Shown here: positions 1 to 21,100 of the stretch, piece by piece
Numbering within the stretch: the first letter of the stretch is position 1
Layout: each line of letters begins with the position of its first letter
IMG/VR virus record: IMGVR_UViG_2740892015_000008
Reading direction: 5' to 3' (one strand)
DNA length: 32,650 nt
From: a virus
Taxonomy: Duplodnaviria > Heunggongvirae > Uroviricota > Caudoviricetes
Position numbers and translations under genes: made by a program
Notes under the pieces: generated by a model
Seen by the model: only the letters and a program-made list of their open reading frames with translations
What the model was told of the DNA's origin: nothing
Database searches by the model: none

Positions 1-2037
1 ACTGCCGGTCAGCATCGCCGCCATATTCTGTGCAATACCATCAAAGGTCTGCGTGGCTGCACTTTTAACCTGCGACATACTGTCCGTGGCGCTCTCTTCC
101 CACTCACTCCAGCCTGACTTCAGGCCTGCCATCCAGCTCCCGCGAAGCTGGTCTTCAGCCGCCCAGGTCTTTTTCTGCTCTGACATGACGTTATTCAGCG
201 CCAGCGGATTATCGCCATACTGTTCCTTCAGGCGCTGTTCCGTGGCTTCCCGTTCTGCCTGCCGGTCAGTCAGCCCCCGGCTTTTCGCATCAATGGCGGC
301 CCGTTTTGCCCGTTGCTGCTGTGCGAATTTATCCGCCTGCTGCGCCAGCGCGTTCAGGTGCTCCTGATACGTAACCTTGTCGCCAAGTGCAGCCAGCTGG
401 CGTTTGTACTCCAGCGTCTCATCTTTATGCGCCAGCAGGGATTTCTCCTGTGCAGACAGCTGGCGACGTTGTGCCGCCTCCTCCAGTACTGCGAACTGAT
501 TTTCCGCTTTCCACAAATCCCGGCGCTGCTGGCTGATTTTCTCATTCGCTCCGGCATGCTTCTCCAGCGTCCGGAGTTCTGCCTGAAGCGTCAGCAGGGC
601 GGCATGAGCTCTGTCTTCCTGACGATCGCCCGCAGACACCTTCACGCCGGACTGTTTCGGCTTTTTCAGCGTCGCTTCATAATCCTTTTTCGCCGCCGCC
701 ATCAGCGTGTTGTAATCTGCCTGCAGGATTTTTCCGTCTTTCAGTGCCTTGTTCAGTTCTTCCTGACGGGCGGTATATTTCTCCAGCGGCGTCTGCAGGC
801 GTTCGTAAGCCTTCTGCGCCTCTTCGGTATATTTCAGCCGTGATGCCTCAGACTCGGCCCAGTCCTTTGCTGCCATCTCTCTGGCCTTTTCAAGATCGGC
901 CTGCAACGTGGCGGCTGAAAGCCCAAGTTGCGCATTCGCTCTGTCCTCCCATGCTCCCCGGAGATTGGCAAGAAATGCTGAGGTTTTACCGCGCCGGTGG
1001 CTCCGGCTCTGATACCACTGCCATTTTTTGTCCGCCTCATCAAAAGCCTTTTCTGCTTTCTCCAGCATTTCCTGGGCAGTGTCCGGGCGACCAATATCCA
1101 GCACCGAATCCCACATGGATTTGAATGCCCGTGCTGTCCTGTCTGCCCAGGTCTCCAGCGTGCCCATGTTCTCTTTCAGGCGGCGGGTCTGGTCATCAAA
1201 CCCTTTCGTTGCGGCCTCGTTCGCCGCCTGCAATGCCCCGGCTTCATCGCCGGAACGCTGCAACTGAGCGACATACGCAATCTGCTCCGCCGTCACGTTA
1301 TGGAACTGGCGCGCCATCGCCGTCAGCCCCGACGTCGGGTCTGTGGTCAGCTTCCCGAAGGCTTCAGCAACCTTGTCCACCTCCACGCCGGATGCAGAGG
1401 AGAAACGCGCCACACTCTGGCTGATGGATGCAATCTGAGTCTCACCGCTTACTCCCGCCTTAACCAGTGCGCTGAGTGACTCGCTGGTCTGGTTAAACGT
1501 CAGCCCTGCCGCCTGCCCGGCTCTGGACAGGACCAGCATACGATCTGCCGTCAGACCCGACTGATTGCCGGAAAGGACCAGCGTTTTGTTGAAATCGGAC
1601 AGGGTTGAGTTGCCCTGATACCAGGCATACGCCAGCGCACCGGTCGCCACCGCCAGCGAGGTGGCCCCGACCATCGGCAGGGTGATCGCACCGGCAAGCC
1701 CCCTGAACATGGGGATCATCCCGCCGAAGGAGTCCTTCACCTGACCACCCTGTTGCAGCAGGATCAGCCACGGACTTTGCCCGCCTGCAAGCTGCGTGGC
1801 CACGTCGGTGAACTGCGCAGGCAGCATACGCATGGCAGCTTTATACTGCCCGACGGAAATCCCCGCTTTCTGTGCAGCCAGCGCCTGTCGGCTCAGAGAC
1901 TGTTCAACGACTGCCGCTGTTTTTTTCGCATCACTTTCCGTACCGGAAAAATGACGCCTGACTCTGGCCATCTGCTCGTCAAATCTGGCCGCATCCAGAC
2001 TTAAATCAACGACCAGATCGCCTACCGGTTCAGCCAT
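1..2037 (-). CDS. H: Tail tape measure protein gpH, N-terminal ~680 codons (3' end lies beyond window start)
   Basis: Minus-strand frame from ATG at 2037 (GGAGGAG SD upstream, overlaps T stop by 8 nt as in lambda) runs open to coordinate 1. N-terminus MAEPVGDLVVDLSLDAARFDEQMARVRRHF matches lambda gpH as recalled. Absent from the ORF track because it is truncated. Confidence 0.9.
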   Translation of the reverse strand, partial: MAEPVGDLVVDLSLDAARFDEQMARVRRHFSGTESDAKKTAAVVEQSLSRQALAAQKAGISVGQYKAAMRMLPAQFTDVATQLAGGQSPWLILLQQGGQVKDSFGGMIPMFRGLAGAITLPMVGATSLAVATGALAYAWYQGNSTLSDFNKTLVLSGNQSGLTADRMLVLSRAGQAAGLTFNQTSESLSALVKAGVSGETQIASISQSVARFSSASGVEVDKVAEAFGKLTTDPTSGLTAMARQFHNVTAEQIAYVAQLQRSGDEAGALQAANEAATKGFDDQTRRLKENMGTLETWADRTARAFKSMWDSVLDIGRPDTAQEMLEKAEKAFDEADKKWQWYQSRSHRRGKTSAFLANLRGAWEDRANAQLGLSAATLQADLEKAREMAAKDWAESEASRLKYTEEAQKAYERLQTPLEKYTARQEELNKALKDGKILQADYNTLMAAAKKDYEATLKKPKQSGVKVSAGDRQEDRAHAALLTLQAELRTLEKHAGANEKISQQRRDLWKAENQFAVLEEAAQRRQLSAQEKSLLAHKDETLEYKRQLAALGDKVTYQEHLNALAQQADKFAQQQRAKRAAIDAKSRGLTDRQAEREATEQRLKEQYGDNPLALNNVMSEQKKTWAAEDQLRGSWMAGLKSGWSEWEESATDSMSQVKSAATQTFDGIAQNMAAMLTGS

Positions 2038-2464
2038 ACCGGACTCCTCCTGCGATCCCTTCTGATACTGTCATCAGCATTACGTCATCCTCCGTCATTT
2101 CAGCCACATCCGGGGAAGCGCGGATAACTTCATTCCCGTCCGGACCAAAGCGGACGCCTCCGGCAAGCCCTGCCGCTTTCTGCATCAGCACATCATCTTC
2201 AGGCTCTTCGTCAGCCTCGCGCCGGTTCAGCAGACTGAAATCCAGCGGATGCATATCCGGATCGCTGAAAAACAGGCTGAGTACGGTGTACGTCAGCCCG
2301 GAAAAGTGCATATCCAGCAGAACATCATGAAAATAATGGGTACTGTAAAAGCGGTGCCAGTCGGCGTACTCCGTGGATGACATCCCGGCAAGCATGGCGC
2401 GCCAGTCGGGTCGCCCCATCTCTCGCGCCAGTTTCAGGGCAAAACTCAGCTCACCGTCGAACAC
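2030..2464 (-). CDS. T: Tail assembly chaperone T frame (expressed as G-T fusion by -1 frameshift)
   Basis: ORF in -1 frame relative to G, overlapping G 3' end at the slippery heptamer. Position between G and H as in lambda. Confidence 0.85.
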   Translation of the reverse strand: MFDGELSFALKLAREMGRPDWRAMLAGMSSTEYADWHRFYSTHYFHDVLLDMHFSGLTYTVLSLFFSDPDMHPLDFSLLNRREADEEPEDDVLMQKAAGLAGGVRFGPDGNEVIRASPDVAEMTEDDVMLMTVSEGIAGGVRYG

Positions 2465-2868
2465 TTTCCCGCAGAAACAGGCTCTGCAGGCCCGGCGTCC
2501 TCTGTCTGTTCAGGAGCATCATTCACCACAAACTCATACATACCGGACAGCCGGTACACCACGTTTTCAGCATGAGAAATTGCCTCCGCGGGCCAGGTGG
2601 TAAGCACTTCCTGCTCAATCTGTTTAACGGCTTCATTCATGGACGGCATCTGCGTCTTCTTCGGATGGTTATGCCACAGGGACATCGCCACCACAAAAGC
2701 ACCGGTTCTGATAAGGTCTGCCAAAGCAACCTGTTGGTTGCTGTCGGAGTCCGCCTGTTCTGCCTGTCGTTTCATCAGGGCGAGATGCTCAATACGCTGC
2801 AGGGCTGACAGTTCAGAAAGCGTGACGGTCACGCCGTTATGTTCAAATGATTCGGTTTTCAGGAACAT
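2446..2868 (-). CDS. G: Tail assembly chaperone gpG
   Basis: 140 aa, same length and position as lambda gpG; frameshift heptamer near its 3' end. Confidence 0.9.
   Translation of the reverse strand: MFLKTESFEHNGVTVTLSELSALQRIEHLALMKRQAEQADSDSNQQVALADLIRTGAFVVAMSLWHNHPKKTQMPSMNEAVKQIEQEVLTTWPAEAISHAENVVYRLSGMYEFVVNDAPEQTEDAGPAEPVSAGKCSTVS
2464..2470 (-). other. Programmed -1 ribosomal frameshift slippery site G GGA AAG (G to G-T)
   Basis: Plus-strand ctttccc at 2464-2470 is minus-strand GGGAAAG, in G's zero frame as G GGA AAG, 5 codons before the G stop. Identical to the lambda G-T slippery heptamer. Confidence 0.85.
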
Positions 2869-2883
2869 CGCTGATTCTCCGGA

Positions 2884-3624
2884 TTAACTGGCGGTGACGT
2901 TGATTTCTGCAACCGCAGCAAACTCACCATTACCGGATACGACCGGAATGTTGACCTTGCCTGCAGCAACACCTTTCACGGTGATGGTCATACCACTGAC
3001 CGACACGGTGGCTTTTGTTTTATCCGCAGACACCGCACGGAAGCTCTTGTCGGTTGCGCCTTCCGGCTGGAATGCCACGGTCAGCGTCGTGCTCTGCCCT
3101 TTAACCACCGAGGTGCTGGCAGGCGTCACGGTCATGCCGGTTGCCGCTGTTACCGTGCTGCGATCTTCTGCCATCGACGGACGTCCCACATTGGTGACCT
3201 TCACCGTACGGGTGATCACTTCCTTCGCTGTCACCGCCTTACCGATACTGCTGACCCAGCCACGGAACACATCGACCGTGCCGTTCGGGAAGCGGATTTT
3301 ATAGGCACGGGTATCACCTTCATTAAACCACGCCAGCAGCGCCTGCTGCCCCTGCTCTCCGGGCATCCACGCCAGCGTGAAGCTGGTATCTCCGGCGGAT
3401 TTCTGCCCCTGCCCGGTCGCGGCCCAGTCCGGATCTTCATCATCGAGATAACTGTCGTCATAGGACTCTGCGGTCAGTTCGCCGGGCGTCAGGTCTTTAA
3501 CTTTTGCCAGACGCGACCAGTCAACGTCTGAAAGCGGGTTCGCATAAGGGTCACCGTTCCCCTTATAAACCCACAGGGTGGTTCCGGCCCCTTTCACCGG
3601 TGCCAGAGGATTTGGTGTTGGCAT
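2884..3624 (-). CDS. V: Major tail tube protein gpV (C-terminal Ig-like domain)
   Basis: Translation matches lambda gpV (…[12 protein letters not shown]…, C-terminal Ig-like region). Start placed at internal ATG 3624 (MPTPNPL, SD GAGGA, 246 aa as in lambda) rather than the ORF-track start at 3654. Confidence 0.92.
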
Positions 3625-11858: not shown

Positions 11859-12378
11859 TCAGCAACCCCGGTATCAGTTCATCCAGCGCGGCTGCTTTGT
11901 TCATGGCTTTGATGATATCCCGTTTCAGGAAATCAATATGCCGGTTATCCAGCTCAGGAAAACGTCGCTGCACCGACAGAGGAATACCGTCGAGAATACT
12001 GGATATTTCCCTTGCTATACGCGACAGCACGAAAGTACAGAATGCGGTTTCCACCACTTCAGCCGATTCTTTGGCATTTTTCAGTTCCTGCGCCGTCGCC
12101 TGAGCACGAGTCAGGCGATGGCGCTCAAATTCAAGTGTTCCGGGGTGAAGATCTGCCTCGCTGGCCAGCCGCAGTTCTTCAACCTCCCGGCGCAGCTTTT
12201 CGTTCTCAATTTCAGCATCCCTTTCGGCATACCATTTTATGACGGCGGCAGAATCATAAAGCACCTCATTACCCTTGCCACCACCCCGCAGAACGGGCAT
12301 TCCCTGCTCCTGCCAGTTCTGAATGGTACGGATACTCGCACCGAAAATATCAGCCAGCTGCTTTTTGTTGACTTCCAT
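11833..12378 (-). CDS. nu1: Terminase small subunit gpNu1
   Basis: 181 aa, N-terminus MEVNKKQLADIFGASIRTIQNWQEQG (winged-HTH); lambda gpNu1 length; directly downstream of cos. Confidence 0.95.
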
Positions 12379-12399
12379 TGTTCATTCCACGGACAAAAA

Positions 12400-12600
12400 C
12401 AGAGAAAGGAAACGACAGAGGCCAAAAAGCTCGTTTTCAGCACCTGTCGTTTCCTTTCTTTTCAGAGGGTGTTTTAAATAAAAACATTAAGTTACGGCGA
12501 AGAAGAACGGAAACGCCTTAAACCGGAAAATTTTCATAAATAGCGAAAACCCGCGCGCCTTCCGCCCCGTAACCTGCCGGATCGCCGGAAAGGACCCGCA
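12400..12600 (-). other. cos site region (cosB-like repeats, cosN-like 12-mer at 12557-12568, cosQ side)
   Basis: Minus-strand sequence upstream of nu1 reads almost as the lambda left end (CGCGGGTTTTCGCTATTTATGAAAATTTTCCGGTTTAAGGCG…) and, on the other side, as the lambda right end (…CGGGTCCTTTCCGG.GATCCG.CAGGTTACG). The intervening 12-mer is GGGCGGAAGGCG. Confidence 0.75.
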
Positions 12601-12648
12601 GAAATGAGCGGGTTAACATACGTTTATTTGCGGAAAAAATTACAGATA

Positions 12649-12672
12649 TAAAAAAGCCCCGCATCGCGGGGC
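12649..12672 (-). terminator. Rho-independent terminator (minus strand) after the small gene at 12695-12910
   Basis: Plus-strand GCCCCGC-atc-GCGGGGC with a preceding A-run; on the minus strand this is a GC stem-loop followed by TTTTTTAT. Confidence 0.6.
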
Positions 12673-12694
12673 TACAGATAGGCGTGGCTACTCA

Positions 12695-12910
12695 TTAGTT
12701 GACTTCAACAAATATAAAATCATCACTGCCTAAACAATGAGAGCCATAACGAACTTCATACTCCCCATTCAATTCAGAGCATTTAGACTTCGCATCGCCT
12801 TCCGTTTCATAAACACCAACAAGATGCCATGGCTTGTAACGTACTACAGCCCAACCAAGAACCCATCCTTGATTATCAGGATCTGCCTTCAGGTTATTTT
12901 CCACAAACAT
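12695..12910 (-). CDS. Hypothetical protein (71 aa), late-region moron
   Basis: ATG with AAGGAG SD 7 nt upstream; relatively AT-rich; followed by a terminator. No recognisable motif. Confidence 0.5.
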   Translation of the reverse strand: MFVENNLKADPDNQGWVLGWAVVRYKPWHLVGVYETEGDAKSKCSELNGEYEVRYGSHCLGSDDFIFVEVN

Positions 12911-12949
12911 AGTATTCTCCTTTGGGTACCCGGAGATATTCTATGCCAT

Positions 12950-13174
12950 TCAATAAACAGGCAGCAATGTAGCTGATACAATCTCCGCCATATTTGAATT
13001 CAGATCACACTCCACGGAGATTTCTTCATCCATGGCACTCACTTCATATGTTCGTGAATAACCCTCAGTGCATTTACCACTGAATGTATCTTCAACCAGA
13101 ACACGTCCACGCTGTAAAATCCGGAATGGGATTGTTCCGTTAAATGGCTTTATGGTTACCAGTAGTTTCTTCAT
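12950..13174 (-). CDS. Hypothetical protein (74 aa from MKKLLVTIKPF)
   Basis: ATG 13174 with GGAGGA just upstream (the ORF-track start at 13192 is a TTG). No recognisable motif. Confidence 0.45.
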   Translation of the reverse strand: MKKLLVTIKPFNGTIPFRILQRGRVLVEDTFSGKCTEGYSRTYEVSAMDEEISVECDLNSNMAEIVSATLLPVY

Positions 13175-13198
13175 ACATCCTCCGGATAACAAAAAAGA

Positions 13199-13642
13199 TT
13201 ACTTAATGCACTGAGTGCGAATATATTCCTGCAGTCCCCTGATCATTTTGTCGTTGATTGCGATTCGATCTCTGAGGACGAAATAATCCCGTTGAGCGGT
13301 GTCAGTAAGTCTGGGGCTGGCGCCATCATCCACGCCGGAGGCGGCGGTGATTTTATGCATGTCCGGACAGACTGCTTTGACGTGCAGCCACTTACGACCA
13401 GCAGAAACATCAGCACGAAGACTTTCGATAGTCGCGTTAGCATCAGCAAGCTCCTTTGTGTATCTGGCATCGAGTTCTGCTACATCACGTTGACGCTTCT
13501 GCATGTCAGTAATAATGGATGCGGCCTTATCACGCTGCTTTTTGTAAGTGATGGCGTTATCACGGTAATGATTAACCGCCCATGACAGGCAGACGATGAT
13601 GCAGATAACCAGAGCAGAGATAATCGCGGTTACTCTGCTCAT
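13199..13642 (-). CDS. Rz: Spanin, inner-membrane subunit Rz (i-spanin)
   Basis: Starts [34 protein letters not shown], matching lambda Rz. ATG 13642 overlaps the R stop (ATGA). N-terminal TM segment plus coiled-coil-like body. Confidence 0.9.
13243..13443 (-). CDS. Rz1: Spanin, outer-membrane lipoprotein subunit Rz1 (o-spanin), embedded in Rz in +1 frame
   Basis: Embedded ORF with lipobox LLVVSGC followed by the proline-rich SPPPPAW motif, as in lambda Rz1. Start chosen at ATG 13443. Confidence 0.8.
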
Positions 13643-14136
13643 TGTTGCCCCCACAAACAGACTTCACGCTCAATCTCGCGGCGAGTCATCAGCCCTTTCC
13701 ATTGCTTACCGCCAGCGTATGTCCAGCGCCGTAGCTGATCACATGCGCCTTTGATATCGCCCTGGTTTATTTTGCGAAGAAGCGTCGATGTTCTGAAATT
13801 TCCAACACCAACGTTGTAAACGAACGAGTAAAGAGCGCCGCGCGTTGTTTCCGGTATATCGACTTTGATGTACGGGTTAATTTGTCTGGCGACAGTGGCA
13901 AGGTCTTTATTCAGGAGGGCTTTGCATTCTGCTTCGGTATACGTTTTACCGAGCATGATGTCTTTTCCGGTGTGTCCGTGACATACAGTCCATACGCCAA
14001 CGATATCTTTGTATGGTATGTAGCTGACACCTTCCAGACCATCGTTACCACTTGGACCCGTGATTAACACAGATGCTATAGCAATAGCCCCGCCACCAAT
14101 AGCAGCAGCAACGGCTTTTCGTAATGATGGAGGCAT
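13639..14136 (-). CDS. R: SAR endolysin (T4-lysozyme-like muramidase with N-terminal signal-anchor-release domain), phage-21 R type
   Basis: 165 aa; N-terminal Gly/Ala-rich weakly hydrophobic segment [18 protein letters not shown] typical of SAR domains; matches phage 21 R as recalled; start overlaps S stop (TAATG). Confidence 0.9.
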
Positions 14137-14351
14137 TATTCACCTCTCGCAGCCTTACGCTTATCTTCTTTAATCTTGAAATAAAGGTTTGTCAGATACG
14201 TCAGCAAGCCAAATACCAGACTACCCAGCACTCCAATTGCCGCCCACTGTGAGGGCGTGACTTTATCTAGCAGCTGTAAAAACCAGTACCCGGCACTACC
14301 TGCTGAGGTGCCATAGGCGACACCCGTTGTTAACTTATCCATGGATTTCAT
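14136..14351 (-). CDS. S: Pinholin S (phage-21 S type) with dual-start motif (antiholin Met1, holin Met4)
   Basis: Starts [26 protein letters not shown], with two TM segments and a charged C-terminus. ATG at 14351 and a second in-frame ATG at 14342 read directly. The ORF-track 92-aa version is an upstream extension. Confidence 0.88.
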
Positions 14352-14387
14352 AACCCCACCTCGCAGATGCGGGTGCTGTGTAATGGA

Positions 14388-14412
14388 AATAAAAAGGCCA
14401 CCTGACGTGGCC
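14388..14412 (-). terminator. Intrinsic terminator-like hairpin between methyltransferase gene and S
   Basis: Plus-strand AAAAA-GGCCAC-ctgac-GTGGCC; on the minus strand a 6-bp GC stem followed by TTTTTATTT. Confidence 0.5.
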
Positions 14413-14418
14413 ACCAGA

Positions 14419-15471
14419 TTATTTCCCCACCAGCTCGTTTATCTCTTTCACTGTCTGGTTAAACCGCTCTGACTCAAGCTCAACACCTAAGGCCCGACGC
14501 CCCAGCGCCATTGCTGCTTTTATTGTGGAACCGGATCCCATAAAAAAATCAGCAACCAGATCACCAGGTCGACTACTGGCATTGATTATTTGCCTGAGCA
14601 TATCCGCCGGTTTCTCACACGGATGTTTACCCGGGTAGAACTGAACGGGTTTATGCATCCAGACATCGGTATAAGGCACGGAGACTGATACGGAGAAATA
14701 GCGCCGGAGAGATTTAAACTCATCCAGCAATTCAGAATATTTGCGATTCAGTGAATCATAAGATGCCACCAGCTGGTGGTGTGGTTGTTCCAGTTGTTGT
14801 TCCTGAAACTTCTCTGCCGCTATACGGGAAAACAGTGCCTGTAACTTCCGATAGTCAGCCTCATTCGGCAACTGCCACTGACTGGCACCAAACCAGTGGG
14901 AAACCATATTTTTCTTACCTGTGGCTTCGGCAATTTGTTTTGCCGTTATACCCAGTTCGGCACGAGCATCCCTGAAATACGATATCAGCGGTGCCATTAT
15001 GTGCTGTTTGAGTTCCCTTTCTTTTGCCGCATAGCCGTCACTTTTGCCGCGATATGGTCCCTGGTAATGTTCAGCAAACAGAACGCGCTCTGTGGCAGGA
15101 AAATATGCGCGCAGACTTTCTTTATTACACCCATTCCAACGTCCGGACGGCTTCGCCCAGATGATATGGTTAAGCACGTTGAAACGTTCACGCATCATGA
15201 TCTCAATATCAGATGCCAGGCGATGCCCACAGAACAGGTAAAGGCTTCCGGCAGGTTTTAACACCCGCCAGAACTGGGCCAGACAGTGGTCCAGCCACTT
15301 AAGGTAATCTTCGTCCCCTTTCCACTGATTGTCCCAGCCGTTGGGTTTCACCTTGAAGTACGGCGGATCGGTAACAATCAGGTCAATGGAATCATCAGGC
15401 AGGGACTGAATAAAATGCAGGCAATCAGCGTTGATTAAATCAACACTGTTTATTTTTACAGTATTTTTCAT
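14419..15471 (-). CDS. DNA methyltransferase, N6-adenine/N4-cytosine amino-MTase (permuted motif order: DPPY then FxGSG)
   Basis: 350 aa; catalytic motif IV-like IVTDPPYF near the N-terminus and AdoMet motif I-like FFMGSGST near the C-terminus. Confidence 0.8.
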
Positions 15472-15621
15472 GGATCAGTAAGCGTAACTCTGGTAGGCTC
15501 ACTCTGCTTTTGCGCTAAAGCAGTGGGCCGTGGTTCGCTTGTGACCAGTAGGCATGAGCGAATGGCTGGCAGGTGCTACCAACACCCACCAGCCGCCCAT
15601 TTTCACAGCAGGAAACCGCCA

Positions 15622-15825
15622 TTACTGGCAGCGTCTGAATTTATTCCCGTACCCGCCGTTATCCTTCGCCAGACCCGCCAGAACTAACTGAGTCAGTATT
15701 AACTGGCACCGGGCTTCGCTTACTCCGGTAGTTCTCGTCATCATGCGTGGCGTTACCCACTTGTCAGCAGGTAAGAAATGAAGGACTGCGGCGGCGGTTT
15801 CTGTCATATCTTGCTGTTTTAGCAT
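15622..15825 (-). CDS. Hypothetical small protein (67 aa), first gene of late region downstream of cassette
   Basis: ATG 15825 with AAGGGA SD 8 nt upstream (ORF-track start 15849 is an earlier in-frame ATG). No motif recognised. Confidence 0.45.
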   Translation of the reverse strand: MLKQQDMTETAAAVLHFLPADKWVTPRMMTRTTGVSEARCQLILTQLVLAGLAKDNGGYGNKFRRCQ

Positions 15826-15979
15826 GTCTTTTTCCCTTCTGGTTAACATGACATACCAATAACTCTTGTCTAAAAAGCCAGCAAGATAAAAAGCCAGTAT
15901 TCACGACCACCAGCGTGTTTACTGTACTGCACCAGGTTTACAGGTACAAAAAAACCGCTCAGCGGCGGGTTTAAGTTGT

Positions 15980-16012
15980 GTGGCGAAGTAACCACTCTTA
16001 ACACGATATAAT
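15980..16012 (+). promoter_or_regulatory. Candidate sigma70 promoter for the plus-strand cassette (perfect -10 TATAAT at 16007-16012, poor -35)
   Basis: Consensus TATAAT read directly about 80 nt upstream of ATG 16091; no good TTGACA-like hexamer at 16-18 bp spacing. Confidence 0.3.
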
Positions 16013-16090
16013 ACTTTTTGCGTACGCGTTAGGATTTTTATAAACTATGCGTCCCCATTCTCGCTATCTTTAGTCGGTCCTGGAATACAC

Positions 16091-17017
16091 ATGAAAGTTA
16101 GAAGCATAGGATTTACAATAAATAACAATAACAAAAATATTAATACCGTTGACGTAATGAATGCTTTTATCAACGCATCAAACAGAGAACACAGTCGCAC
16201 AGACTATACTCGTAAAATTCTCATTTCGGATGTGAATGATTTCTATTATGGATTAGTTGTCACATTCAGAAACCAAAAAAAGAACTGTAAGTCGCAATTT
16301 GTTGATGGTAAATTCCAGCTTAAAATTGAAGATCTTCAAGGAAGTGACAAACTTGCTAATTTCAACTTTTTCTTAATTAAAAAATCTAATCTTTCTGGTC
16401 TCTATATGTATCACCACGGTTCATGCAGTCTGAACACTCTCTTTTCTCATTTAGAAACAATAAGTAATGAATTTATCAGAAATCAAAATAAAGAAGAAAT
16501 AAAAAAACTTGGAGATAAACCAAAACAAAAAGAAGTAACTGCAATAAATAAAAAATACAAAGAAAGACTGACTTTCAGCCTTATGACAAATAAAAACAAC
16601 ATTCAGAGTGTTTTATGTCAATTCAAAGAGATTAAAAGCACAAGCTTTAAATTTAATTATATAGATTTTAAAGGTGGGCCAATGACTGCGCTTGAACAAT
16701 TTGTTAACACCACCACAATAGATATGAATTTTAATTCTAGCGACAGAACAAAAGTGCAACAACTATCTCAGAATCTTTCAAATATTTATAATTCTATGAG
16801 TGGAGTTGCTAAAGCACAGGTTATTGCAGTAAACCATGCAGGAATAGAAAAAACCATTGATTTTATGAACTGCCCTGTTTTTTTTGAAACATACGATTTC
16901 GATATAATTGCCGATAAAGTCAATGGATTGACAAACGATAATTATACAACAAACCCTGTTTTTGATATGATAAAAGAAGAAATGCTGAACGGGACGAATA
17001 AAAATGCCTTTATATGA
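16091..17017 (+). CDS. Hypothetical protein (308 aa), AT-rich, first gene of two-gene cassette; candidate defence/abortive-infection component
   Basis: Long plus-strand ORF in a minus-strand late region; Asn/Lys/Ile-rich; overlaps the start of the downstream gene; no recognisable catalytic motif. Confidence 0.7.
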   Translation: MKVRSIGFTINNNNKNINTVDVMNAFINASNREHSRTDYTRKILISDVNDFYYGLVVTFRNQKKNCKSQFVDGKFQLKIEDLQGSDKLANFNFFLIKKSNLSGLYMYHHGSCSLNTLFSHLETISNEFIRNQNKEEIKKLGDKPKQKEVTAINKKYKERLTFSLMTNKNNIQSVLCQFKEIKSTSFKFNYIDFKGGPMTALEQFVNTTTIDMNFNSSDRTKVQQLSQNLSNIYNSMSGVAKAQVIAVNHAGIEKTIDFMNCPVFFETYDFDIIADKVNGLTNDNYTTNPVFDMIKEEMLNGTNKNAFI

Positions 17018-17552
17018 ATGGCTAATAAATAAAAGATTGAGGTATCAGTACATTACACTGCTTGCATTCTCGATCCTGGCATTGCTTGCACTTTACCTAT
17101 TGTACAGAAACACACCTAAAGTAAGTGTTAACTTTTTTGATTTTTATCATAAAAACTTACGAGGCTATCTCTTCTCCGGTTTTATTTCCGTGGGTTCATT
17201 TTTATTGAGCCTGCATACCTTTGTCATAATAAATTTACGCGATAAGGTTTTTGCAACTCAGGAATATAAGGAAATTTATAGCATTGCCACTGGTATACCT
17301 ATTGACAAAATCAATGATAGTGTACTTTATAAACCTTTAGACAATTTATCCTCATTTATTAATACATCAATATTATGTTCTATCACAACAGCAATTGCAC
17401 AATTCACTATTGGACTTTCAACTAATTTATATGCATGCTTATTTTGCGTATGGCTTGCAATACTAACGGTATTTCTTTTATTACATTGCCTCATCATAAT
17501 CAGACAAAATATTAAAATTTTATTAAAGCAACAGAGAAAAAAAGGGGGGTAA
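17004..17552 (+). CDS. Hypothetical small membrane protein (182 aa, ~4 TM helices), second gene of cassette
   Basis: ATG 17004 lies inside the 3' end of the upstream ORF. Four hydrophobic segments (YITLLAFSILALLALYLLY, LFSGFISVGSFLLSLHTFVII, FINTSILCSITTAIAQFTIGL, YACLFCVWLAILTVFLLLHCLIII) and a basic tail KQQRKKGG. Confidence 0.7.
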   Translation: MPLYEWLINKRLRYQYITLLAFSILALLALYLLYRNTPKVSVNFFDFYHKNLRGYLFSGFISVGSFLLSLHTFVIINLRDKVFATQEYKEIYSIATGIPIDKINDSVLYKPLDNLSSFINTSILCSITTAIAQFTIGLSTNLYACLFCVWLAILTVFLLLHCLIIIRQNIKILLKQQRKKGG

Positions 17553-17567
17553 TTCCCCCTAATATTA
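17537..17567. terminator. Convergent (bidirectional) intrinsic terminator between Q and the cassette
   Basis: A7-GGGGGG-taatt-CCCCC-TAATATT; on the minus strand the stem is followed by T7. It overlaps the last codons of the membrane-protein gene and lies 5 nt from the Q stop. Confidence 0.7.
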
Positions 17568-17906
17568 CAACATTGAAAGCACACCATCCAGAAAACCAAG
17601 AGCTGTTTGCAACTCTTTTCTTATTGTCCCATCAGAACACTTCTGCTTCTTTGCAATAGTTCTTAGTGAGATGCCGATAACAAAATGAGCAATAACCAAC
17701 TCATACTCTTCGGGCTTATATTTCCGCAATCGCGCAACACAGCTGTCAATCATGATTCCTTCATCATCATCGCATTGTTGGCGTGTTTTCTTTCCATGAG
17801 GTAGTAAACCTTTAAACCCTGCAGCAACAGGCTGCCAGTCCACACCACTGTTATCTGCTGCAGCCCATGCACCCCAGCGGTCCAATACTTCATACATATC
17901 ACGCAT
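17565..17906 (-). CDS. Late-gene antiterminator Q, short QuuD-like type
   Basis: …MRDMYEVLDRWGAWAAADNSGVDWQPVAAGFKGLL…CSDGTIRKELQTALGFLDGVL resembles the E. coli DLP12 QuuD antiterminator as recalled. ATG 17906 with GGAGA SD (ORF-track start 17921 is a TTG). Located just before the late region. Confidence 0.7.
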   Translation of the reverse strand: MRDMYEVLDRWGAWAAADNSGVDWQPVAAGFKGLLPHGKKTRQQCDDDEGIMIDSCVARLRKYKPEEYELVIAHFVIGISLRTIAKKQKCSDGTIRKELQTALGFLDGVLSML

Positions 17907-17923
17907 CAACTTTCTCCACAAAA

Positions 17924-18919
17924 TCAGGCCAGCACGCCAATTGCCAGCGCACGATCGATAAAACGAAATATCAGCTCCAGCTGGGAGCCATACTTCTCTT
18001 CAAATGCCACGGTATCCGCATGCAGCTCGTCGTGATGCTTTCTGCACAAAGGCAACACAAAGAGGTCATGCGCTTTTGTCCCCATTCCGCCCTGACCGTG
18101 ACCTATCAAATGGTGGGGATCATCAGCAGGCTTTCCACAACATACACACGGCTGCGTCTTAACCCAGCTCGTGTACTTTTCGTTAACCCAACGGCGACGT
18201 TTGGGGCGTAACATAAAAGACTCCGGCGACTCCGGATCCACTTTCAGCGTCAGCACCTTTTTCGCTTTATCCTGGATGATGCTGGTGGCAGGAACCGAAG
18301 GCACAAGGTCACACTCCCGGGTGACAGACGGCACAACAGGCGTCGGTAATCTCAGTGCCTTACGGGCTGCACTTTCCGGTAAGGCATCCGCCAAGTCATT
18401 ACGAACCAGCCACCAGCACAGTTCCGGCATTGTCACAACGTGACTGTCATCAAAACCGAGATCCCGACGCACGACAGACAACACCCAGAGGGCACAGTTA
18501 TCCGTTGCCATTGATTCCAGCCGTTCCGTGAACTGATCGCGCAGCAGGTTATCGCAGTGCCAGCACAGACGGATTGCGCCCGGCGCGTGTCGCATTGTGG
18601 TCATGTTCTCGCAGTGCCAGTCGGAATGAGGCCACTGGCAGCCTTTTTCACGAAGTAACCAGCTTTCAAGACATTCCACCCCACCAGCACGACGGATCAC
18701 TGCCTCATTGCGGAATACGGCCCGAACAGCAGGATCATCCGCCAGCGGTTGTGATGCCGCAGGAACGGCACCACTGGCGAAAGATGAATAACGTTCCGGC
18801 TCAGGCTCCAGCAGAACACGTCCCTGCATAAACAGGGGCATCAGCTCTGAACCAGGCCTGAACAATACGATCCCCATACGCGGGGCTATTTCAGGGGTCA
18901 GTAGTGCTCTCACGGTCAC
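17924..18919 (-). CDS. Prophage protein with C-terminal Cys/His-rich motif (YdfU/DUF968-like)
   Basis: C-terminal CVCCGKPADDPHHLIGHGQGGMGTKAHDLFVLPLCRKHHDELH; nin-region position upstream of Q. Confidence 0.55.
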   Translation of the reverse strand: MTVRALLTPEIAPRMGIVLFRPGSELMPLFMQGRVLLEPEPERYSSFASGAVPAASQPLADDPAVRAVFRNEAVIRRAGGVECLESWLLREKGCQWPHSDWHCENMTTMRHAPGAIRLCWHCDNLLRDQFTERLESMATDNCALWVLSVVRRDLGFDDSHVVTMPELCWWLVRNDLADALPESAARKALRLPTPVVPSVTRECDLVPSVPATSIIQDKAKKVLTLKVDPESPESFMLRPKRRRWVNEKYTSWVKTQPCVCCGKPADDPHHLIGHGQGGMGTKAHDLFVLPLCRKHHDELHADTVAFEEKYGSQLELIFRFIDRALAIGVLA

Positions 18920-18920
18920 C

Positions 18921-19718
18921 TCAATGAACGGTATCGAGCAGCTTTAACAGCTCAGGGAATCGGGATTCGAAGAAATGCGGCTGCGTCTCGCGCGGATTTG
19001 CGGGACTGGTGATGTTCTTGCCGAACATGCAGCCTTTCGCTGTCAGCGACCAGAATTTTTTGATGTTGTTAATCGCGGTACGGCTGTATCGTTCGCGTTG
19101 TTCAACGATCCCCAGCTTCACCATCTGGTGATATGCCTGATTAGCCGTAAGGCGGATACCATACTGTTTCAGCAGTGCACTCAGCGACAGCGTGGGGCGA
19201 CTTGAGCCATCAGGCGCGTCAGCAGGAGCATCAATGGCATAGCGCGGTGCCAGATTCGGTAAGCCAACAGCCTCCTGGAGTTTCTGACAGGCACCAAGCA
19301 CAGATGAGTTAGACAGGTTTAACTCCCGGCGCATAAAGTCCAGCAGAATCACACCAGCCTGCATCTTGTCAGCAGCCTGCCCGGATAATTTTTCCGGTGC
19401 GCTGGTTACCATATCGAAAGTACGGATCACCTTCAGATGGAATGACGGACTGATCCACATTGCATAGGCATACACCAGTTCTTTGCAGACATACGTCCCC
19501 TGGTTATTTCCGCCACGAATAACGTTAACTGGCTCTATATTGACCGAGTTGCAAATCTGCAACTCGCTTATTAAACGTTCAGTTTGCTCATTGCGGAGCC
19601 AGAATGCAGGCTTATGCTTATCCAGAGAACCGGCAGCCCTGTGTAGATCGTTCAGGCTGTAACGCCCATAAGCATCACGACGAACTTCAATACCATCAAT
19701 AACCATCAGATTATTCAT
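18921..19718 (-). CDS. KilA-N domain protein (Roi/antirepressor-like)
   Basis: N-terminal IDGIEVRRDAYGRYSLNDLHRAAG pattern typical of KilA-N DNA-binding domains. Confidence 0.6.
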   Translation of the reverse strand: MNNLMVIDGIEVRRDAYGRYSLNDLHRAAGSLDKHKPAFWLRNEQTERLISELQICNSVNIEPVNVIRGGNNQGTYVCKELVYAYAMWISPSFHLKVIRTFDMVTSAPEKLSGQAADKMQAGVILLDFMRRELNLSNSSVLGACQKLQEAVGLPNLAPRYAIDAPADAPDGSSRPTLSLSALLKQYGIRLTANQAYHQMVKLGIVEQRERYSRTAINNIKKFWSLTAKGCMFGKNITSPANPRETQPHFFESRFPELLKLLDTVH

Positions 19719-19737
19719 ACTTCGTTTCTCCTCTTAA

Positions 19738-20127
19738 TCAGGCGGCTGCACCCGCCGTTTTCTCGTACTTACTGATGGTGAGCTCGACCTTCCCTTCCGG
19801 GATAACCGGTCCCCACTCCACCAGCATCCTTTTCACCTGACTGTCGTCTTCCCACACACCCGCGTGGGTCAGGACGTCAAACAGTGCCTTGTTATAGTTG
19901 TCCAGATCGCGGATCCGGTTATCCGGAGGAAACAACACGATCTCCACTGAAGCAGGTGCCGACGTTGGTTTTGGCAGACGACGTAACTGCTCAACTATTG
20001 CTGCGCACGCCGCGCTCTGAAATTTTCGCCCCGCCGCGCTTATCAGGCTCTTACCAGCAAATGCCCCTTTGTTGGGGTGTCGCCAGTACGTGTTCACGCT
20101 GGGCGGGAAAGGCAGGATCAGCTTCAT
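19738..20127 (-). CDS. rusA: Holliday junction resolvase RusA
   Basis: 129 aa; LPFPPSVNTYW near the N-terminus and a DLDNYNKALFDVLTHAG acidic catalytic region; nin-region location. Confidence 0.85.
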   Translation of the reverse strand: MKLILPFPPSVNTYWRHPNKGAFAGKSLISAAGRKFQSAACAAIVEQLRRLPKPTSAPASVEIVLFPPDNRIRDLDNYNKALFDVLTHAGVWEDDSQVKRMLVEWGPVIPEGKVELTISKYEKTAGAAA

Positions 20128-20450
20128 ACTTTCAGGCCTCTCTCATGTAACCAGTGAGTTGCACGCAGCCTTGCGTTTTCCTCACCGGCAAGCAGTGAGC
20201 GGATAATCCCGACCGCCTCGCTGTCGTCGTCCTTCACCGCGGTATGAAGCGTGATCCCCCGGGCCACACCACGCTTTATCGTGATGACGCCTTTTTTCTC
20301 CAGTGCGCGAAGATGCTCCACCGCTGCATTCACTGAACGGTATCCCAGCATGGTTGCCACCTCCTGATTGGTTGGCGGGAAGCCACGTTCTTTCTGATAA
20401 GAAATCAGCATATCCAGCACCTGCTGCTGGCATTGAGTTAACGTCGTCAT
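20124..20450 (-). CDS. LexA-like DNA-binding-domain-only protein (no S24 peptidase domain)
   Basis: 108 aa; LTQCQQQVLDMLISYQKERGFPPTNQEVATMLGYRSVNAAVEHLRALEKKGVITIKRGVARGITL parallels the LexA N-terminal winged-helix domain; the ORF ends before any protease domain. Confidence 0.7.
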   Translation of the reverse strand: MTTLTQCQQQVLDMLISYQKERGFPPTNQEVATMLGYRSVNAAVEHLRALEKKGVITIKRGVARGITLHTAVKDDDSEAVGIIRSLLAGEENARLRATHWLHERGLKV

Positions 20451-21100
20451 GCCGCCATCTCCCTGACCAGTTTTTCCGCCTGCTGGCGAACCTGCGCCAG
20501 AAAGGCCTCACCACATGCCTCAAGTTCATCGCGCCCGATGTAGCTGATTGCCGGTCCCTTCCAGGTCTTGTCGAAAACAGCAATAGCACCAGCGAAGAAA
20601 GCTCCTGTCGGCACCTGCTTCTCGTCCTTCGGTATAAACCAGGCAGGCAGTTCAAAACCAATACGCCCGCGAATAAAAGCAATATGATCTGCATCTTCCG
20701 GCCACCACACTTCGCTGGTGGCAGCTTTGATCAGGAAAACATAGCGCCCGCCTTTATCACGCATGGCACTGGCATGCTTCATGATGTAACGCATGCCGGT
20801 GATGTATTCCCCCTCATGCTGACTGGCGCGGCTGTATGGGGGATTGCCAAAGGCAGCACCTTTAAGCTCCGCAAGGCGTTCTGACCAGTCATGCGCCAGC
20901 GCGTTGTCTTCCGCCGTGTAATACGCGGCACATTTGGCGTTATCACCGTCAGTGAACAGATCCAGAACAAACGGGCCAAACAGGGTGTTAATTCCCCAGA
21001 AAATGTTATCCGGCGTGCGCCACTGATCACCCACTTCCTTCAGCTCATGGACTGGTTTGTTCCGCAGTTCCACCAGCGCCTGGCAATATTTATTACTCAT
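20447..21100 (-). CDS. Phage-type DNA N6-adenine methyltransferase (Dam-like, NPPY motif)
   Basis: FGNPPYSRA catalytic motif; ATG 21100 overlaps the upstream stop (TAATG), giving 217 aa; ORF-track start 21133 is an extension. Confidence 0.75.
   Translation of the reverse strand: MSNKYCQALVELRNKPVHELKEVGDQWRTPDNIFWGINTLFGPFVLDLFTDGDNAKCAAYYTAEDNALAHDWSERLAELKGAAFGNPPYSRASQHEGEYITGMRYIMKHASAMRDKGGRYVFLIKAATSEVWWPEDADHIAFIRGRIGFELPAWFIPKDEKQVPTGAFFAGAIAVFDKTWKGPAISYIGRDELEACGEAFLAQVRQQAEKLVREMAA

Follow-up and report, generated by a model that had tools for sequence, protein, structure and literature searches.

The stretch of DNA considered here is a 32,650-nucleotide (nt) viral sequence (IMG/VR record IMGVR_UViG_2740892015_000008; Caudoviricetes), referred to in its full length as the window, which represents a lambdoid prophage whose rightward direction of transcription (pR to late) corresponds to the minus strand. 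Our analyses indicate that the early-right operon of this prophage is probably closed, after the antiterminator gene Q, by a one-way terminator, and that the late promoter pR' is displaced beyond a two-gene cassette inserted in antisense orientation. The location of the cassette between Q and the late genes, which had been proposed in the original prediction made from the sequence alone, is borne out. The features on which this reading is based are listed below (aa, amino acids; d, terminator score described further on).

17565..17921, minus strand: antiterminator Q, short form, Q21/933W family (PF06530, E=2.5e-45)
17537..17560, minus strand: intrinsic terminator at the end of Q; stem of 17560/17559-17555 with 17549-17543, U7 templated by 17543-17537
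17004..17552, plus strand: cassette gene 2, a 182-aa protein with three strong and one weaker hydrophobic segment, ending RKKGG
16091..17017, plus strand: cassette gene 1, a 308-aa protein with a RexA-like predicted fold
16020..16031, minus strand: TAACGCGTACGC with palindrome GCGTACGC, putative Q-binding element and -35 region of pR', and left boundary of the cassette hotspot
15972..16013, minus strand: candidate pR' -10 hexamers TATTAT (16013-16008), TATATC (16010-16005) and TATCGT (16008-16003)
15948..15966, minus strand: putative tR', GCCGC-TGA-GCGGT plus T7 (GCCGCTGAGCGGT + T7, d=+8.8), homologous to terminators annotated in the phages Ayreon and SfV

The junction of Q and the cassette reads, on the plus strand, A7 (17537-17543), G6 (17544-17549), TAATT (17550-17554) and C5 (17555-17559), and direct reading of these letters confirmed the hairpin G6-TAATT-C5 that had been noticed earlier, with a minus-strand T7 arising from the lysine-coding A7, about 5 nt past the end of Q. 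The stem starts 4-5 nt from the Q stop codon (TAA, minus strand, 17567-17565), and the terminator extends into the membrane-protein gene of the cassette, taking in its final five codons and its stop codon. The 3' end of this open reading frame (ORF; 17004-17552) is AGA AAA AAA GGG GGG TAA, which places its stop codon inside the hairpin loop, and the last two lysines of the membrane protein are encoded by the A-run. On the minus strand the hairpin consists of 6 pairs (5 of them G-C) with an energy of -10.9 to -11.4 kcal/mol and is followed by U7; the energy of the plus-strand hairpin is -12.7 kcal/mol. In a consensus scan of positions 12000-22000, AGGGGGAATTACCCCCCT + TTTTTTTCTCT on the minus strand was the second-ranked terminator-like site.

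Both strands of the whole window (65 kb of strand) were additionally examined by means of a d'Aubenton-Carafa-type score (d), combining the hairpin energy per nucleotide with a weighted T-tail, for which modern energy parameters were used. Thirteen sites in the window have d>0, and the Q-end hairpin, with d=+29.1 in the Q direction, is third among them. In the cassette direction, where it is followed by the tail TAATATTACAAC, the same hairpin scores d=-28.6, and the second U-tract that a bidirectional terminator carries is absent, the plus-strand tail being UAAUAUUACAAC. By this score the Q-end hairpin is a one-way terminator, strong for transcription coming from Q but below threshold for transcription coming from the cassette; hence the description of it as a strong convergent terminator shared by Q and the cassette holds for its strength in the Q direction but not for the sharing. 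It is located directly 3' of Q, the last gene of the early-right operon, and between pR (~24600) and the Q stop the only other minus-strand site with d>0 is found at 23358-23345 (d=+16). The proposal that early-right transcription is stopped here is consistent with a canonical intrinsic terminator in the Q direction. No Rfam family matched positions 13500-18500, even at E up to 1. Taken by itself, this is an ordinary, textbook intrinsic terminator at a convergent gene junction, and it matters little alone.

The hairpin, together with at least T6, is retained in all 25 near-identical copies of this region that are present in IMG/VR. The sequence is identical in 19 of these copies; in three others an A->G change in the loop lengthens the stem to G6/C6, and in a further three the homopolymer runs are one base shorter (T6, or C5 and T6). 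These differences at 17537-17560, in the length of the homopolymers (A7/A6, C5/C6, plus strand) or in the loop A->G, are seen in the copies L012, L013, L014, L016, L017 and L025. A change in the length of the A-run shifts the frame of the last membrane-protein codons, and the version of the protein in L013 has 185 aa.

The late promoter is not found directly downstream of Q in the window. The sequence block that we assign to it is located 1.5 kb away, beyond the cassette, and reads on the late strand TAACGCGTACGC-AAAAA-GTATTATATCG-TGTTAAGAGTGGTTACTTCGCCACACAACTTAAA-CCGCCGCTGAGCGG-TTTTTTT. Within this pR'/tR' block, a nearly invariant stretch, TGTTAAGAGTGGTTACTTCGCCACACAACTTAA (also read as TGTTAAGAGTGGTTACTTCGCCACAC), represents the putative initial transcribed part, and the start site is predicted to lie near 15998, within 3 nt on either side. 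The hairpin at 15966-15948, which is most readily understood as tR', would end a pR' transcript of roughly 50 nt; a terminator thus stands between the promoter and the late genes, with a second one at 14412-14396. Two parts of the original prediction find support in these observations, viz. that a late promoter lies beyond the cassette within 15850-16090, where comparison of relatives places pR' at ~16031-15995 on the minus strand, and that a weaker hairpin plus T7 is present at 15948-15968. A full-text literature search for the block sequence returned nothing relevant.

The location of the block in related phages provides the main evidence for the placement of pR'. In 7 of 7 hand-picked loci that possess a short PF06530 Q (two Shiga toxin (Stx) phages, SfII, a Klebsiella phage, and three E. 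coli phage or prophage loci), each with a different reverse-oriented cassette after Q, the block is kept beyond the cassette. Among 80 IMG/VR loci with a Q at least 87% identical to that of the window, it is present 1.0-3.8 kb after the Q stop in 78, the available sequence being too short in the remaining two. About 11 further distinct cassette types are represented here, and in all of them the main ORFs are antisense to Q. Similarity between cassette types starts exactly at TAACGCGTACGC. The DLP12 prophage of E. coli K-12 shows the same order, with quuD, a reversed nmpC, and then the block ~120 base pairs (bp) upstream of the holin gene essD. In NC_000913.3 the block occupies 577,222-577,276, from which a plus-strand start near 577,227 and a 3' end near 577,277-577,282 are predicted; a passage in PMC7918800, citing Rueggeberg 2013, reports that the DLP12 lysis operon is under the control of a Q-type antiterminator. 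Diverged homologues of the cassette of the window (45-70% identity; from Salmonella, Kosakonia, and Yersinia) likewise face a PF06530 Q in convergent orientation, with the block coming after them.

The empty site is the decisive result for the position of pR'. In 14 complete E. coli genomes, the Q 3' end and the block are contained within one 318-bp stretch without any cassette, and in the single empty site that was read (L092, E. coli Combat2C1) 16 nt separate the Q stop from the block and its terminator. Because the block is conserved after every cassette type and adjoins Q in empty sites, pR' is most reasonably placed beyond the cassette and not within Q. The same locus (positions 1700-3300) carries genes for an ADP-ribosyltransferase and a subtilase-type B subunit after tR', in the late orientation and before the holin; these toxin genes resemble the toxin morons found after tR' in Stx phages.

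Further information is provided by phages with a different type of Q. The phages SfV and Ayreon, which have a lambda-type Q, share with the window tR' and everything downstream of it, and this homology ends at 15971; upstream of the shared terminator they possess a lambda-like promoter containing AACGATGGG. Among the relatives with a PF06530 Q, the element upstream of the -10 occurs in four classes, GCGTACGC, GCGGTCCGC, ACGTACGT, and CGTTTACAATCG, which track the helix-turn-helix region of Q, whereas the transcribed part of the block is nearly invariant. A variable upstream element combined with an invariant leader is the pattern that would be expected of a Q-binding element followed by a leader contacting polymerase or sigma.

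The gap between the Q stop and TAACGCGTACGC (16031-17565 in the window; L001-L003, L006-L010, and L036-L090) contains about 20 unrelated cassettes in the loci analyzed, all of them antisense to Q. The cargo includes Kiwa (L009), TIR-TM (L003), PDC-M53 (L008), PDC-S33 (L071), PDC-S60 (L081), and the nmpC porin of DLP12; five of the ~20 cassettes are known or candidate defence systems, and no sequence similarity was found between cassettes at this site except that of L036 with L089. The cassette of the window is also foreign in composition (27-34% G+C, compared with 46-58% in its flanks). This combination of foreign composition and replacement by unrelated cassettes at one site is that of a moron or defence hotspot, and these comparisons identify the Q-pR' gap as an insertion hotspot for antisense cassettes, which is of modest interest as a variant of what is known of morons and defence hotspots. 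An arrangement comparable to quuD-nmpC-essD of DLP12 is that of the lc porin in phage PA-2, and the architecture of the gap extends this old DLP12/PA-2 porin arrangement to many defence cassettes.

The Q gene of the window loses its homology to other Q alleles at its stop codon or close to it, which leaves the hairpin on the cassette side of the mosaic joint; the terminator is supplied by the cassette and not by Q. The exact Q 3' end, the hairpin and the cassette occur together in 215-217 complete E. coli genomes. The manner in which cassettes entered may be hinted at by two vestiges: on the pR' side of the cassette, CATAGTTTATAAAAATCC (16032-16049, minus strand) resembles the empty-site spacer CATAAGTTATGAAAAAATCAC, and in some cassette types the cassette promoter has as its -10 TAGAAT, which corresponds in reverse complement to ATTCTA, vestigial codons of the Q C-terminus. 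On account of these likenesses, cassettes may have been inserted exactly at the Q stop, accompanied by small duplications or deletions.

These observations can be combined in a model, which we regard as probable, in which the operon from pR to Q would be closed by a factor-independent terminator a few bases past the Q stop, with the last codons of the cassette (AAA AAA GGG GGG) supplying both the template of the U-tract and one arm of the stem. Since polymerase that started at pR would not be modified by Q, and no N or nut site is evident, it should stop at the Q-end hairpin, and this stop would keep early transcription off the antisense strand of the cassette and out of the late region. The displaced pR' would consist of the palindromic putative Q-binding element, a TAnnnT -10 and the conserved initial transcribed stretch, with tR' (15966-15948), a 75-aa ORF, a methylase gene, the second terminator and the lysis genes downstream of it. 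Q produced from the early operon would act in trans at this promoter, and for this reason late transcription would never cross the cassette.

A number of observations weigh against this model. Relative to dinucleotide shuffles, the hairpin has modest fold z-scores (-1.4, minus strand; -2.1, plus strand), which is attributable to the fact that such shuffles preserve the G and C runs. The putative pR' hexamers are weak by consensus, fall below the call of the consensus scan and permit several registers, and the initial transcribed region, TGTTAAGAGTGGTTACTTCGCC, offers pause-element candidates (AAGAGT and TTACTT) of which none is convincing relative to the consensus. The co-variation of Q and the upstream element could reflect linkage rather than recognition. 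A stable hairpin is present in 16 of 18 junction types, but d exceeds 0 in the Q direction in only seven of the 18 (and in the cassette direction in four), and among the diverged homologues of the cassette a strong Q-direction terminator is found solely in the Kosakonia copy (d=+26.8). Because so many junction types and diverged homologues are without a strong Q-direction terminator, such a terminator is recurrent but not obligatory at the junction, and insulation is possibly dispensable. A ribosome terminating at the Q stop, 4-5 nt from the stem, could also hinder folding of the hairpin and lower its efficiency.

The origin of the hairpin from the cassette is also what would be expected if it were simply the 3' end of a moron, serving mainly to protect the convergent mRNAs from 3' exonucleases, with the T7 a by-product of two lysine codons and no regulatory role in phage development. 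This explanation, which we consider unlikely, is favoured by the position of the hairpin on the cassette side of the recombination joint and by the presence of a different, unrelated hairpin in almost all cassette types, in many cases with no T-tract on either strand. The junction hairpins of other cassettes and of the diverged homologues are unrelated sequences, and the lack of covariation accords with this explanation, since junction hairpins are not homologous to one another. However, the hairpin falls short as a terminator in the direction of the cassette that it would serve (d=-28.6) while in the Q direction it is among the three best of the window. Several unrelated cassettes (those of the window, L003, L009, L036, L058, and the Kosakonia locus L095) also carry an A-run immediately upstream of their hairpin, and at least T6 is retained in 25 of 25 copies. 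A relationship of the hairpin to recombination, as a site-specific insertion site similar to an integron attC or a transposon end and not a transcription signal, would account for the sharp boundaries of the cassettes (right after the Q stop and right before TAACGCGTACGC) and for the Q-proximal hairpin in 16/18 junction types, but the hairpins share neither sequence nor architecture, no recombinase or repeat accompanies the cassettes, and homologous recombination within the long conserved flanks (Q and the pR' block) is sufficient for their exchange; at 16032-16049, moreover, the flank of the window's cassette on the pR' side still resembles the empty-site spacer. We consider such a function very improbable.

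The original prediction had also raised the possibility that pR' is located in or at the Q 3' end, in which case Q-modified polymerase would read antisense through the cassette and silence it by collision. An extended -10-like sequence, TGtTGTAAT (17572-17564, minus strand), does overlap the last Q codons and the stop on direct reading, and a transcript starting from it would begin inside the stem and thus escape the hairpin. This sequence is probably due to chance, as it has no -35 and the consensus scan called no promoter in the Q 3' end; the 3' ends of different Q alleles are also not conserved in the way that a promoter would be. In contrast, a block apparently specific for the type of Q is present beyond the cassette in all relatives, adjoins Q where there is no cassette (at a distance of 16 nt in L092) and co-varies with Q. 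The comparisons thus give no support to a promoter in Q with antisense reading of the cassette, for which only a very slight chance is left, and they favour termination after Q with pR' displaced beyond the cassette.

The proposed arrangement has much in common with the lambdoid Q/pR'/tR' switch as it is known from lambda (6S RNA), StxS (PMC7547250) and phage 21 (PMC6606751; 10.1101/651190), viz. a Q of the Q21/933W family (PF06530), a putative Q-type-specific element before a candidate -10, and a short predicted leader to an intrinsic terminator followed by lysis genes; cassette-free relatives, with the promoter close behind Q (16 nt in L092), conform to the textbook layout. The window differs in having ~1.5 kb of antisense foreign DNA between Q and the promoter, in the length of its predicted leader (~50 nt, compared with 194 nt in lambda and 258 nt for StxS), in its putative Q-binding element, which is the palindrome GCGTACGC in place of the TGAGCA direct repeats of phage 21, and in the size of its Q (113-118 aa, compared with 162 aa). 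The quuD-nmpC-essD region of DLP12 is similar to the window in its short PF06530 Q, its convergent accessory gene with junction hairpins and the same block, but its cargo is a porin and not a Rex-like pair, its upstream element ACGTACGT belongs to another Q helix-turn-helix class than the GCGTACGC of the window, and its junction is without a canonical Q-direction terminator (best d=-2.4).

Bidirectional intrinsic terminators between convergent genes were reportedly described by Ju, Li and Liu in 2019. The Q-end hairpin resembles these in that a single GC hairpin, flanked on one side by an A-tract, separates two convergent genes, but its U-tract is present on one strand only, which makes it unidirectional by score, and it overlaps a coding sequence and its stop codon. 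The hotspot itself can be compared with the defence hotspots of P2 and P4 (PMC9122126), with which it shares a fixed position between conserved phage genes and many unrelated, AT-rich cassettes, presumably transcribed independently. It differs from them in that the site separates Q from its cognate late promoter in lambdoid phages, that the cargo is antisense to Q in all cases examined, and that a candidate -35 overlaps the putative Q-binding element.

The two cassette genes look like a Rex-type anti-phage system, judging from the predicted RexA-like fold of the 308-aa protein. The pair is without sequence similarity to RexA/RexB of lambda (RexA structure, PMC11077077), no Pfam or PADLOC match having been obtained, and it is located in the Q-pR' gap and not in the immunity region. 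The partner of the RexA-like protein has 182 aa with 3-4 hydrophobic segments, whereas RexB is a protein of 144 aa. No match was found for the 182-aa protein in Pfam, NCBIfam, PADLOC or PHROG, and for the 308-aa protein there was none in Pfam, NCBIfam or PADLOC and only phrog_2802 (function unknown) in PHROGs. The family of the 308-aa protein is confined to Enterobacterales and is convergent with a PF06530 Q in every context fetched.

A candidate promoter of the cassette was recognized upstream of its first gene:

16018..16046, plus strand: candidate cassette promoter, -35 TTGCGT (16018-16023), 17-bp spacer, -10 TAAACT (16041-16046)

The -35 TTGCGT lies inside the palindrome, and TAAACT is ~38 nt before the ATG. 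Of the 14 distinct cassette types that share TTGCGT, 13 have a TAnnnT at a spacer of 17 or 18, and far fewer have one at other offsets. The TTGCGT-17-TAAACT combination falls below the threshold of the consensus scan, and by reading of the sequences the TTGCGT/TAnnnT pattern is absent from the empty site, from Q classes with other upstream elements and from three of four diverged cassette homologues; this candidate promoter is a lead only and would not be general. It nevertheless raises the possibility, in our estimation quite unlikely, that the Q-pR' gap is a dedicated docking site for antisense defence cassettes whose -35 lies inside the Q-binding palindrome, so that Q, on appearing late in induction, would both load onto polymerase at pR' and occlude the cassette promoter. 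If this were so, the abortive-infection system of the prophage itself (here the Rex-like pair) would be off at late commitment, and the terminator after Q would shield the cassette from early transcription before that time.

The transcript map implied by these results would cover many prophages of E. coli, Salmonella, Klebsiella, and Yersinia, some Stx1 and Stx2 phages, and DLP12 of K-12. In these elements Q and its promoter can be 1-4 kb apart through antisense cargo, and the annotation of pR' as just after Q would be wrong there. Cargo of the gap, defence systems included, is predicted to be outside the Q-dependent late transcript, in contrast to toxin genes that are inserted downstream of tR'. 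With its sharp boundaries, the gap also lends itself to the collection of uncharacterised defence candidates, including the pair of the window with its predicted RexA fold, and the hotspot architecture is worth a modest follow-up.

Assignment of the Q protein was made as follows. It shows a weak match (E=2.6e-4) to the Q21 structures 6JNX and 6P18, and on the basis of this match Q was placed with Q21. A placement in the Q82 family, with a comparison of the block with the pR' of phage 82 (pause at +25, GCC at +15-17; PMC5001585, PMC4914094), was dropped, as the match to Q21 structures favours Q21. In the preprint 10.1101/651190, PF06530 is given for the Q82 family as well as for Q21/933W, which looks like a printing error and does not decide between the two. 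The mechanical start of the Q ORF is the TTG at 17921; since homologues begin MRDMYEV, the true start is likely the ATG at 17906, which would give a protein of 113 aa.

The remaining features of the window that border on the proposed transcription units are the following.

24674-25366, plus strand: cI, followed late-ward by cro, a cII-like gene and replication genes
14419..15849, minus strand: first genes after tR', a 75-aa ORF (15849-15622) and a DNA methyltransferase (15471-14419)
14396..14412, minus strand: strong terminator between methylase and holin (d=+30.0), annotated as a terminator in SfV and Ayreon
14414-14136, minus strand: holin ORF, followed by the endolysin ORF (14136-13639)

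The cro and cII-like genes overlap, and the genes before Q are, in order, a LexA-like gene, RusA, a KilA-N gene, and a DUF968 gene. Positions 21000-26500 yielded neither an N-like antiterminator nor a nutR, the pL-side ORFs being not N-like but YfdP/YfdQ-like; boxA-like matches are at chance level (12, compared with 11.3 expected), and the annotation of a near-identical phage contains no N. Q would seem to be the sole antiterminator used by this phage lineage, a reading drawn from absence of evidence only. The holin and endolysin are of types that we take to be those of phage 21, viz. a pinholin and a signal-arrest-release (SAR) endolysin. Another strong minus-strand terminator is found at 12656-12672 (d=+48). 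The tR' of the window is weak and one G shorter than that of its relatives, and is backed up by the terminator at 14396-14412 before the lysis genes. Leak-through might allow expression of the 75-aa ORF and the methylase in lysogens.

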